A DNA stretch of 64,000 nt from Eledone cirrhosa (Eukaryota), in the NCBI GenBank assembly GCA_964016885.1, contig OZ024746.1, positions 56,606,001 through 56,670,000 of the forward strand, written 5' to 3'. Each line of letters starts with the position of its first letter. Position 1 is the first letter of the stretch. Made by a program: the position numbers and the translations under genes. Shown piece by piece: positions 6,199 to 61,091 of this stretch. Under the pieces are notes generated by a model that worked only from the letters and a program-made list of their open reading frames with translations, did no database searches and was not told the DNA's origin.

Positions 6199-8035
6199 AT
6201 GGCGGAAAAGATGGCAGACATGTCTGCCATTAGCTCTGCCACGCCCCCCAAGTCTGAAGAACAAAAAATAATTACAACAAAATTAGACATTGAAACAAAC
6301 AAAGAAAATGATAAAACAAATGTTAAGGAAAATGAGCAAACAGAAAACAAACAAACAGAAAATAATACAAATAACGACAGGGCAACTTTCGCCCAGAAAA
6401 CAAAACAATCCATTACATACACACCAATTGACCTAACTGCCGCCAGAGAAAAACTGGCCGAAGCAAAGAAACACATTGTTTTGGGGGAGAACGGAATGTC
6501 TTCCATTAACTCCCCCCCAGAATTCAAGAAAGCCAGAGCAGAAAACACAGTTCTCTACAGAACTATACTCAACCAGACAAGAAAGCCAGCACAGCCCAGC
6601 CAAATGGAAATAGAGTTAGTCCTAAAAGACTATATGAAGAATATTCTCTTCATACGAAAGGACCGACTCTATGGCAGCATTTCGGTCCTAACAAGAGACA
6701 AAGAAACGGCGGAGAAGCTTTCCCTAAGCCCACTCTCATCGACAACATATAGCTTCTATCCCTCCTACATGGGTAGAAGAACACAGAGAGTAAAAGTAAA
6801 AACAATGCTGCCCACAATGGACTTCTGGTGGGCTATTGCTGGCTTCATTGATATGGGCGAAGACACAATGCTGTCAATGGGGAAGGCAACTGGAGATGCG
6901 TTCCTGGGAATGGGCCTCGACATACTAGTCCAAATGAGGCCCGAAAGAATAGCACAAATCCCGGATCGCATCTGGCTGGATGACCTTACCCCAATAGACA
7001 TAATTGTAGAGGGGAGAAGACCAGCATGCTATTTATGCATGGAAAGGGGACACATTAAGGCTAACTGCCCGAAACGTATCCCCCAAAAAGGACTATTGCC
7101 CACACCCACCACAAACAGTACACCAACACCACCCACCTCCCAAAATACACTAATACCACACACAGTAAACAAAATACAGACACCACCAACCACAAACACA
7201 ACACAAACATCACCAACACCAGCACCAAACACAAGCACGACACAAAAATCACCACCACCAACCACAACACAAACATCACCACCACCATCACCAACCACAA
7301 GCACGACACAAACATTACCACCACCACCAAAAAACCCATTCCAAACAAATAATAAAAAAAACAGTAACAAATCTACCCCTCCCGCAAAAAAAAACAACCA
7401 CACAACACGTCCCTCCCAACTAGCGCTGAAGAGTTTCTCCCAACTTCTGAAGAAGAAGGAGGAGAAGCCTTCAGACAAGTTAAAAGAAAAAAAAGAAAAC
7501 ACACACCCAGCACACCACAAATAACCCACACACAAACACCAACTCCAATCAAAAACACCCCACCCTCAACAAACAAAAATAAATCTGCGCCTCCCCTCTC
7601 CGAAACATTGACAGCATCACAAAAAAAGACGTTGCAATACACATATATAAATAAAGAAAACAAAAAACTGGTTAAATTAATAAACAATAACCCTATGGTG
7701 CAGACCGAAGGGCCAAACTTTATCTCAACAGAGAACTTCACCCATTTAAAAATGATAAAGGTTCCTCTGGACCTTTATCGTTCCTTAAAAGAACAATTTA
7801 GACGGGACGTGAGCCCCCCCCCCCCTGTTTAAAACCGTTGAATCGCGTCCTCTTGAAAGATTTCCCCATAACCGCCCCTCTCCCTGACACAACTCCAAAT
7901 ACCCCAACCCCACCACACACGTGTACCCCCACACCACCACAAAACATCCCTCCACCCAACACACCTGATGCCATGGAAATTACGCAACCCGGAGAGGTAA
8001 GTGCTTTTCTTTCTTCACTTTCAACACCAAAATAG
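6199..8035 (+). pseudogene. Tx1 ORF1 (gag-like), frameshifted
   Basis: CYLCMERGHIKANC knuckle and P/T-rich linker; C-terminal part continues in ORFs 7608-7832 and 7838-8035, with breaks at or near A/C homopolymers. Confidence 0.85.
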
Positions 8036-11000
8036 ATCAATTGAGAGTTGGCTGTTTGAACGCGCGTGGCCTGGGCTCAGCTTGGAAGCAAGCAAAGCTT
8101 CTAAGTGACCTCAGGTCACAAAGTATAGATGTGATGGTTGTTTGCGAGAGTCGGATCAGCAGCGTGAGACAGCTGGCGCCCGCCTTCGATGACTTTGAGA
8201 TGCACGCATCTCTCTGTCAACCCGGAGGCGGGGGGGGGGAGTTGCCGTACTGCTGGATAAACGTCTGACTCTCGACGTACAGATTGTTCACTCGGACCCG
8301 GGGGGTCGATTACTGGTGCTGGACGTCGGAGGCGGTGAAGGCGGGGCTTTCAGACTGGTCGGTCTTTATGCTCCCTTCGGGGCGGAAAGAGCCGACTTCT
8401 TCCAGCGTCTGGAGACTTTTCTAGGAACGTCGCGTTCCCTGCTTTTATTGGGGGACTGGAATGGAAGCCTAGATGCGCGTTGGGACTATGCAGGGGCATG
8501 TCCCGATAGAGGGGGGTGTAGCAGCCTCAAGGGGTTACTCGATCGATTCGACCTGGTCGATAGATTTCGACTAGATTGTCCAACTGCGCCAACCTGGACC
8601 TGGGCAAACCGCAGTGGACAATCTAGATCGTACCTAGATAGGTTTTTGTTTAGGAGTAAGGATAGGGACGTATTTAGTTGTCCAGAACTGATCATGGTTG
8701 GCTATTCAGATCACAAATTAGTGACCTGCGTGGTCAACCTTGATAGAACGCATAGACAGGGTCCCGGTTACTGGAAGATGAACTTGTCCTTACCGACAAA
8801 GAAAGATTACAGAAACCGGATTAGTAGCTTAGTTAAGATGCGGTTGACGGGAGCGATCGTCAACAGTAGGTGGTGGGTATCTCTAAAGAGAGAGATTAGA
8901 GTAAGTTCGATAGGTTACAGTAAGGAACTAGCGGCGAATAGAAATAGAAAGGAAAGGGAGTTAACAGATAAACTAGAAGAGGCGATTAGGAGCGGAGACG
9001 TAGCCAGAGTGTTAGCGACGAGAACGGCATTGAGCCAGTTCTTTGACGCGAAGCACGAAGGCTGCGTTGTCCGAAGTAAAATACGTGCTTTAGGAAACGA
9101 GGGGACCAAAGCTGTTAGCTGGGCCCGCGTTACAGAAGCCAAGAGTGGGATTAAATCCACCATTCGGTCTTTGCGAGACCAGGATGGACGGGTGATCCTT
9201 GAACCTGAGCGAATGTGCGAGACCTTTCAAAGGCACTTTGCTCGACTGTTCGGAGGTGGCGGGGGGGCCGGATGGGGATGTGGACTTCGGTCCATACCTC
9301 GACGGTCTACCGCGTCTTTCGAGCGGCGAAGCGGAGTGCTGCGAAAGGCCAATCACAGCCACTGAAATCGGGGAAGCGCTCAGCCAATGCAGCAGACGCA
9401 AATCCCCGGGTCTCGATGGTCTACCATACGAACTTTATTTAACTATGCCGGTCTTGTTCTCCGAACTCCTCGAGGCTGTCTATTGCAACTGGCAACAGAA
9501 CGGGAGAATTCCCTGTCCTGTGACCAAGGGCGTGGTCACGCTAGTGAGGAAGGACGAGAGCAAGGGGGACGACTTAAGTAACTTTAGGCCCATAACTCTG
9601 CTGAATGCAGAGTTACAGATTTTGGCCAAGGTGTTGGCGAAGAGGTTGGCGCTTGTGGTGGGTGGTTTGGTGGGAGACGCGCAGACATGCGCTATCCCGT
9701 CCAGGTCCATTCACGACAACCTCCACCTCATGCGATACATCATAGAGAGGGTTGGCTACGAACCCGGCTTTGGTGGGGCCCTGATCAACTTGGATCAATC
9801 TAAGGCGTTCGATAGGGTCGACCATGGTTACCTGGATGCGGTGCTAGCGGCGGCGGGCTTCGGACCCGTTTTCAGGGGCTGGATTTCTGCCATGCACAGT
9901 GGCAACATCTACTCTAGGATTAAAGTAAACGGCTACCTCTCGGAGCCGTTTCAAATCACCCGATCCATCAGACAGGGGTGCCCCCTCTCCTCCCTTCTGT
10001 ACGTATTGACTCTCGAGCCACTGCTGCGGAAGTTGGAGTTGCTGCGGGGCATACCCCTGGAACCGGGATTGCACAAAGCGGTCTCGGCCTATGCCGACGA
10101 CGTAACAGTCATGGTGGCGGACGCCTCGGAAATCGGGGCGATCGCCACCCTACTGGAGGAATACGAATGGCTGACGGGGGCTAAGCTGAACCAGGACAAG
10201 TCAGTCGGTTTGCAACTCGGAACGTGGAGGGGCAAACCGATGCCGTTAGACGGTGTCGTCGGGCGGTGGACGGAGGGCCCGGTGAAGCTGCTCGGGGTCT
10301 GGTTCGGACCGGACCTCCAGGTGGAGAAGAATTGGGGCGAGGTGACGAGCAGGGTGTTTGCGCTGACCCAGAAGTGGGCCAAGTGCAAACTATCACTGAA
10401 AGGTCGGGCGGAGGTGACGAACGCTTACATAGCGTCCGTCATCTACTACCGCCTGACCGTCGTGCCTTGCCCCAAGGAAAAGCTCACTATCATGGAACGC
10501 ATGCTCTTCCAGTTCCTCTGGAAGAAGCGGCCTCCCATGGTGAGGAGATCCATCTGCTGCCAGCACCCTTCGAAAGGAGGGCTGGGTATGCCGTGGCTGT
10601 TGATGCGTAGGCACGCATTGAGGCTACGGCATCTACAGGTATTCCTCAACGGTCAGCCGGTGTGGGCCCCGTTTGTGAGGCGAGCCTTCCCACAGCTCGT
10701 CTCGCTCACCGAACTGCAATCCTGGGTGAAGCAAAGACCGAGAAAACTGGGCAACTGGCACACCGAGTGTGCCCAGGCGCTCACGGCTATCTGGCAAGCG
10801 GACCCGACTGTCAGTGGAGAATCCACCTCGACATTCTATAGAGGGTTGGTGGCTAGCAGGGGCGACGACACCCTTGGAGAGTCGCTAGGCATGGAGGAGG
10901 ACGAACTGGCCAGCCTGTTCGGTAGAACTTTCGGCCCGGGACCCATGGACAACTTCCAGAGGTCCCTAGCCTGGCAGTGTTACCGGGGGGCTCTGCCCGT

Positions 11001-60766: not shown

Positions 60767-61091
60767 ACTAAAGGTGGAAAACTGGGAGAGGGCACTTGCC
60801 TTGGTGGTCAGGGTCATTGTGGCTTTTTACTGGGCTTTCTCCACAAATGTCCCTCCGAAGTCTCCCCCCTATTGGGGAATTTTTCATTGTTATTTTCATT
60901 GTTATTTTTGTTACATCCTCTGTTTTTGTTTTTTTACACGCAGAAATGCCCATTTGTACCGTCCTGCATTGTCCTGCACTGTCCTTAATGTCTACTTTAT
61001 GTAAACCCTTGTGGTTAATAAAGAAATCATTATTATTATTATTATTATTATTATTATTATTATTATTATTATTATTATTATTATTATTATT

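Follow-up and report, generated by a model that had tools for sequence, protein, structure and literature searches.

A conserved 5′ splice site at the end of ORF1 in a clade of Eledone cirrhosa LINEs, and chimeric families with splice-like junctions

Introduction

Can a long interspersed nuclear element (LINE) treat its second open reading frame (ORF) as an intron? The question is raised by a 64,000-nucleotide (nt) stretch of Eledone cirrhosa DNA (the window; GCA_964016885.1, contig OZ024746.1, positions 56,606,001–56,670,000, forward strand), which contains three full-length LINEs together with a 3′ fragment of another. A first-pass annotation of the window reported the hexamer GTAAGT at the ORF1 end of each full-length copy (7997, 50420 on the minus strand, and 57308) and acceptor-like AG dinucleotides ending at 11472, 46964 (minus strand), 60773 and, in the fragment, 30330. 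All of these are present, and they had been read as a sign that ORF2 may be a facultative intron. We find that the hexamer is part of a conserved donor that exceeds chance expectation, whereas the acceptor proposed at the ORF2 stop codon is weak. That the ORF1 end holds a 5′ splice site which is under selection and apparently used is well supported by comparison of the genomic copies.

Results

The ORF1 end carries a conserved 5′ splice site

The three copies and the features at their ORF1 ends are as follows.

5996..11705, plus strand: copy 1, full-length L1-group LINE of family 1, with (CTAT)n flanks and frameshifts in both ORF1 and ORF2
7994..8002, plus strand: ORF1-end 5′ splice site of copy 1, phase 0, with the ORF1 stop 12 codons on; top of 274 GT sites
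8005..8026, plus strand: pyrimidine-rich spacer after the donor of copy 1, 82% C/T versus 46% in ORF2
46711..52536, minus strand: copy 2, full-length LINE of family 2, with (ATT)n flanks, ORF2 intact (50383–46964) and ORF1 frameshifted
50415..50423, minus strand: ORF1-end 5′ splice site of copy 2, phase 1; top of 294 GT sites
54994..61028, plus strand: copy 3, full-length LINE of family 3, with (ATT)n flanks, ORF2 intact (57347–60766) and ORF1 frameshifted
57305..57313, plus strand: ORF1-end 5′ splice site of copy 3, phase 2, including the TAA stop; top of 300 GT sites

The sequence around the three donors had been described as otherwise dissimilar, but the copies are not independent: their ORF2 DNA is 68–75% identical. 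Across the genome, a donor-like site was found 54–79 nt upstream in 28 of 30 unselected loci (the first 30 matches to an endonuclease motif), the other two being one mutated and one deleted, and in all 40 loci picked for diversity out of 100 listed. Four variants have spread (GTAAGT, GTAGGT, GTGAGT and GTAATT), all of them compatible with donor function; variation stays within the consensus, with A or G at +3 and +4, and the single family with T at +5 has CAG in front of the site. The motif both matches the U2-type 5′ splice-site consensus and is conserved. When nine subfamilies (65–89% identity) were compared, five of the nine donor columns were invariant, against 2 of 52 columns upstream, none of 38 in the spacer and 43 of 193 four-fold degenerate ORF2 sites. 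Scored with an approximate metazoan matrix, the ORF1-end donor is first or tied for first among the ~300 GTs of 11 of 13 elements, its column tops 115 conserved GT columns (7.6 versus 5.0 bits), and equally strong sites occur elsewhere at ~0.005 per 40 nt.

Could the hexamer merely reflect the context of the ORF1 TAA stop, as the annotation itself had cautioned? Read from intact genomic copies, the donor lies in phase 0, 1 and 2 in families 1, 2 and 3, respectively (the phase in the L106 family is ambiguous), so the motif is more than the context of a TAA stop; the ORF1 proteins of these three families are mutually only 29–32% identical. In every case the donor lies 0–13 codons from the ORF1 stop, so that a splice would leave ORF1 nearly whole. 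The spacer that follows is 73–91% pyrimidine. Of 71 loci fetched for distant relatives, 29 include the start of ORF2 (mostly at 23–33% identity, relatives at 39–44% not being among them), and no strong donor was seen in front of it in any of these. Conservation across families therefore holds within the clade and is not a general Tx1 trait. We consider the ORF1-end donor very probably functional.

Most families have another donor-like hexamer, 25–95 nt in from the 5′ end (in copies 2 and 3 at 52504–52499, minus strand, and 55026–55031, plus strand; also in L101, L119, L126 and L131); family C lacks it. A YAG directly precedes the ORF1 ATG in families 1, B and L101. The site in copy 1 is:

6059..6064, plus strand: second donor-like hexamer, in the 5′ untranslated region (UTR) of copy 1

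Chimeric families break at the donor

Comparison of 129 donor-bearing ORF1 ends (some from overlapping loci; L337–L364 by their listed matches only) revealed three types of chimeric junction. In all three, the sequence breaks exactly at the donor of one family, with a 2-nt AG ambiguity, and resumes just past a CAG located 23–99 nt upstream of the donor of another family. One of them lies in the window:

57265..57307, plus strand: 43-nt segment of copy 3 after the fossil junction 57264/57265; the sequence ahead of it matches a family-C-like exon end, and the segment follows CAG in family 3b

This first type, J1, is family 3 itself, whose ORF2 is sister to that of family 3b; its upstream parent, judged by eye, is a relative of family C only. 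In J2, the L094 type, the exon end of the L106 family is joined to 23 nt that follow CAG in family A. In J3 (L296, L297, L298 and L302), the same exon end is joined to 99 nt that follow CAG in the L094 type. No type runs on into the donor hexamer, and AG makes up the only bases in common. Genomic junctions exactly at a donor and an acceptor, like those of the SpIREs (spliced integrated retrotransposed elements) of human L1, are thus present in the three chimeric types and not in an ORF2-less form; every splice-like junction found leads from a donor into a different element, at its ORF1 end.

The simplest reading is that chimeras arose from read-through RNA in which a donor was spliced to a short exon, itself delimited by the donor of the next element. 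Being autonomous, such chimeric RNA would retrotranspose in cis. The fossil junctions suggest that the donor has really been used and has helped to build hybrid families. Head-to-tail arrays with a period of ~6 kb are found at (ATT)n (L007–L009, L012, L013 and L017–L019), and some mix families 2 and 3; the existence of mixed-family arrays counts in favor of cross-element splicing. Separately, L115 is an ORF2 recombinant with a family-2b-like 5′ portion and a family-3b-like 3′ portion.

Candidate acceptors at the ORF2 end differ by family

The 3′ ends of the elements contain the following features.

11433..11450, plus strand: conserved short hairpin near the ORF2 end of copy 1, inside the proposed intron
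11451..11473, plus strand: candidate acceptor of copy 1, at the ORF2 TAG stop; rank 3 of 263 AGs
11691, plus strand: AATAAA of copy 1
46963..46985, minus strand: candidate acceptor of copy 2, at the ORF2 TAG stop; rank 12 of 266 AGs
46723–46718, minus strand: AATAAA of copy 2
60767..60774, plus strand: acceptor first proposed for copy 3 (AAG); rank 66 of 264 AGs
60925..60944, plus strand: alternative acceptor in the family-3 3′UTR, a T-run and then CAG (AG ends at 60943); rank 1 of 264 AGs, would add 19 codons
61017..61022, plus strand: AATAAA of copy 3
30250..30530, plus strand: 5′-truncated 3′-end fragment of a related family, with a TAG that ends at 30330

The annotation had placed an acceptor at or just after the ORF2 stop. 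In copies 1 and 2 the AG is that of the ORF2 TAG itself, and its ranks are modest; in copy 3 the splice was expected to give a longer tail, but the reading frame entered at the AAG stays open as far as the poly(A) signal. The TAG stop is kept as a candidate acceptor in eight of nine subfamilies (mean 1.1 bits). It lies 200–300 nt ahead of AATAAA, the size of a terminal exon, and purine-rich sequence follows it. In the phase set by the donor, a stop occurs no more than three codons past the acceptor in 7 of 13 subfamilies, versus 5–6 of 26 other phase cells (p 0.06–0.08, for families that are related and not independent).

The conserved ORF1-end site is likely a working donor under selection, presumably recognized by the spliceosome. 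Most likely, it would allow a fraction of the transcripts to omit ORF2 and serve as ORF1-only mRNA, with the unspliced remainder providing ORF2 and the template for retrotransposition. The terminal acceptor would be the ORF2 TAG in most families and the 3′UTR CAG in family 3. As a by-product, read-through RNA of mixed head-to-tail arrays would be spliced from a donor to a CAG near the next ORF1 end, and such events would found autonomous ORF1/ORF2 hybrids. For an ORF1-only mRNA made by skipping ORF2, with candidate acceptors differing by family, we put the case as evenly balanced.

Several observations weigh against this model. Among 114 conserved AG columns the ORF2-stop acceptor comes no higher than 5th, and within elements it ranks 3–77 of the ~260 AGs; family 3, the most active family, has a TAA stop and has lost the stop-codon acceptor. 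No consistent branch point was seen by eye, the purine run after the TAG also pairs in a 3′UTR stem, and in 6 of 13 subfamilies the predicted tail has at least 32 codons or no stop. Because the search for junctions started from donor exon ends, the finding of breaks at the donor is in part an effect of ascertainment, and the AG microhomology at the junctions is also compatible with template switching. Finally, precise ORF2-less retrocopies were absent from searches with exact and open junction patterns for families 3, 2/2b, A/B, 1, C, 3b and L106.

ORF2-less retrocopies were searched for genome-wide

Retroposed copies precisely lacking ORF2 had been put forward as a check of the facultative intron. 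The search that returned none is set beside 1,225 + 862 + 1,760 + 578 + 215 = 4,640 donor-bearing copies, a total that excludes families C and 3b; the open patterns were blind to T as the sixth exon base, and some hits were seen as short matches only (22 of 52 in one search as 20-mers). In one junction search, ~70 of 92 hits shared another continuation, which by position lies within ORF2, ~2 kb past family-2 donors. HAL1-like genomic copies with ORF1 alone were likewise not found beside the ~4,640 donor-bearing ones, and a search of gene models with ORF1 gave no hits with a spliced C terminus. As a positive control, 5′UTR-spliced retrocopies were sought in two families, and there were none. 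The one internal deletion derivative tested as a control for trans-mobilization was single-copy among 40 scored, and deletion ends at nine loci were not GT-AG.

The missing retrocopies limit the ORF2-skipping model. They leave it standing because RNA without ORF2 would depend on a trans supply of it. Cis preference is seen in L1 (PMC5860796), and the fact that the only visible splice products are autonomous ones fits a strict cis preference and weakens the argument from missing retrocopies. Either such a preference or the absence of the hairpin at the ORF2 end, a candidate reverse transcriptase (RT)-recognition element that would be removed with the intron, may keep spliced RNA out of retrotransposition. 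The hairpin occupies the last ORF2 codons (in copies 2 and 3 at 46986–47003 and 60727–60744); in family C the stem is in a shifted register.

Four of seven sequencing runs were compared with copy 3. In the one presumed to be RNA, the depth was zero at the donor and acceptor bins and none of the 15 listed joints starts from 57307 (1,036 others are unlisted), so that the run has no bearing on the junction.

Other roles for the motif

The best-surviving alternative is that the motif is kept as a U1 small nuclear ribonucleoprotein (snRNP) site guarding the full-length RNA, through antitermination, elongation or escape from nuclear surveillance, with splicing a rare accident behind the chimeras. 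Points in its favor are a strong donor facing a weak acceptor, the lack of ORF2-less retrocopies and the additional donor-like hexamer that most families have close to the 5′ end. There are precedents: U1 on the donor of the copia element EVD prevents premature termination (PMC5580714), and Restrictor is blocked by 5′ splice sites (PMC12211998). However, ORF2 contains only 0–2 A(A/T)TAAA hexamers in each of 11 full-length representatives, at no shared position, and the upstream A(A/T)TAAA sites are not homologous, so there is little visible for U1 to suppress; the overlap of the donor with the ORF1 end, rather than with the free spacer, is also left unexplained. We regard this explanation as possible but doubtful. 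Two related ideas were dropped: the upstream AATAAA as an HIV-like occluded site, because its positions are not homologous, and evasion of HUSH, where protection is independent of splice sites (PMC8770142).

A role for the motif in terminating ORF1 and re-initiating at ORF2, as a stop context followed by a pyrimidine tract, is improbable; on this view its likeness to a donor would be incidental and the chimeras would have been produced by AG-microhomology template switching. TAA, TAG or TGA does occupy +2 to +4 in phase-2 families, family 1 has no ORF2 ATG, and a pyrimidine tract precedes the ATG. Nevertheless, the motif is retained in phases 0 and 1, +5 and +6 are conserved although non-coding in phase-2 families, and each of the three junctions stops at a donor and continues past a CAG.

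A mini-intron of 28–66 nt over the spacer, fusing ORF1 to ORF2 or freeing the ORF2 start, is very unlikely: YAG stands just before or after the ORF2 ATG in some families (one with a branch-point-like motif), and the spacer of the L106 family (L205–L216) and of L108 resembles an intron of 37–47 nt with a pyrimidine tract and YAG before the ORF2 ATG, but such an intron would be very short, family 1 offers no AG in frame, and intron-less copies, which the spliced RNA would leave by retrotransposing in cis, were not found, including in the L106 family.

The elements belong to the L1 group and likely to the Tx1 clade

The ORF2 product contains an APE endonuclease, an RT and a C-terminal zinc finger (PF03372, PF00078 and PF13966), its best match in the PDB is human L1 ORF2p (E 2e-52), and ORF1 lies upstream, an arrangement that identifies an L1-group non-LTR (long terminal repeat) element. 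A CCHC zinc knuckle aligns in all three intact ORF1s, with a Pfam match below the cut-off. The element ends abut (ATT)n or (CTAT)n, with the choice of target tracking two ORF2 clades. Judged from the CCHC ORF1 and the target preference rather than from an RT tree, membership in the Tx1 clade is likely; similarity searches returned no named Tx1 reference. One endonuclease motif has 9,350 matches genome-wide, often within head-to-tail arrays of mixed families, and family 3 comprises 1,225 donor-bearing copies.

8032..11472, plus strand: ORF2 (endonuclease, RT, zinc finger) of copy 1

In every family 1 copy seen, ORF2 starts with ATA in place of ATG, overlapping the ORF1 TAG (window 8032–8035; L070, L072, L082 and L083), and yet the family has 578 copies. 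Immediately after copy 1 is inserted a short 5′-truncated 3′ end of a related family (11738–11817). Multiple copies of a short repeat resembling a short interspersed nuclear element adjoin the LINEs (window 30540–31000 and 54600–54800). An unrelated tandem satellite with a ~60-nt unit was also caught by a pattern search (L278–L280; G000 C28).

Discussion

Drosophila copia yields a spliced subgenomic gag RNA. The same holds for the Ty1/copia element EVD of Arabidopsis, in which a conserved donor closes the structural gene and U1 has a dual role (PMC5580714). As in copia, splicing in the Eledone elements would yield a surplus of structural protein. Copia, however, is an LTR element with one polyprotein, while here the element is a bicistronic LINE whose splicing is predicted from the sequence; and EVD combines a short intron with premature polyadenylation (PMC5580714), whereas no poly(A) hexamer is conserved in ORF2 here.

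HAL1 (half-L1) elements carry ORF1 only. The predicted spliced RNA would resemble them in consisting of ORF1 and the 3′ end, but genomic copies of that form, as described above, were not found. Human L1 SpIREs (PMC5860796) and SpORF2 (PMC2896524) likewise have usable splice sites, and their spliced RNAs can retrotranspose and leave precise junctions. In L1, however, splicing takes out parts of the 5′UTR or ORF1, and the outcome is a dead end or RNA with ORF2 only (PMC5860796, PMC2896524). The Eledone donor stands at the end of ORF1, and the products that carry junctions are autonomous families of high copy number.

Kibi and Koshi (PMC4494074, PMC3812793) and the L1-Tx1 elements of Octopus vulgaris (PMC13282606) share with the Eledone elements an APE endonuclease/RT/zinc-finger ORF2, a CCHC ORF1 and insertion into microsatellites; the targets here are (ATT)n and (CTAT)n, and the likeness in clade is drawn from features, not from a tree. 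In the available text on these elements no splice signal is mentioned: for O. vulgaris, the L1-Tx1 families are named with splicing left out (PMC13282606). The text of PMC10294476 only lists the clade, and the introns of TART lie in antisense RNA (PMC1636488). Neither an ORF1-end donor nor splice-born LINE chimeras were found in the titles and abstracts searched, which mostly did not include subscription journals, Repbase reports and bioRxiv supplements.

The ratio of ORF1 to ORF2 in LINEs is thought to be set by inefficient re-initiation, and replacement of ORF1 and the 5′UTR is usually credited to template switching. Splicing of L1 has been described as inhibitory, a dead end (PMC5860796). 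We tentatively propose, at somewhat less than even confidence, that the Eledone elements may use the spliceosome twice: with ORF2 as a regulated intron that sets the ratio, and with a donor that swaps ORF1 modules across arrays and founds families, including the youngest large one of the genome. If this is true, a LINE clade with an ORF1-end donor would have converged on the strategy of copia, and the chimeric junctions point to splicing as a route by which ORF1 and the 5′UTR may be replaced.

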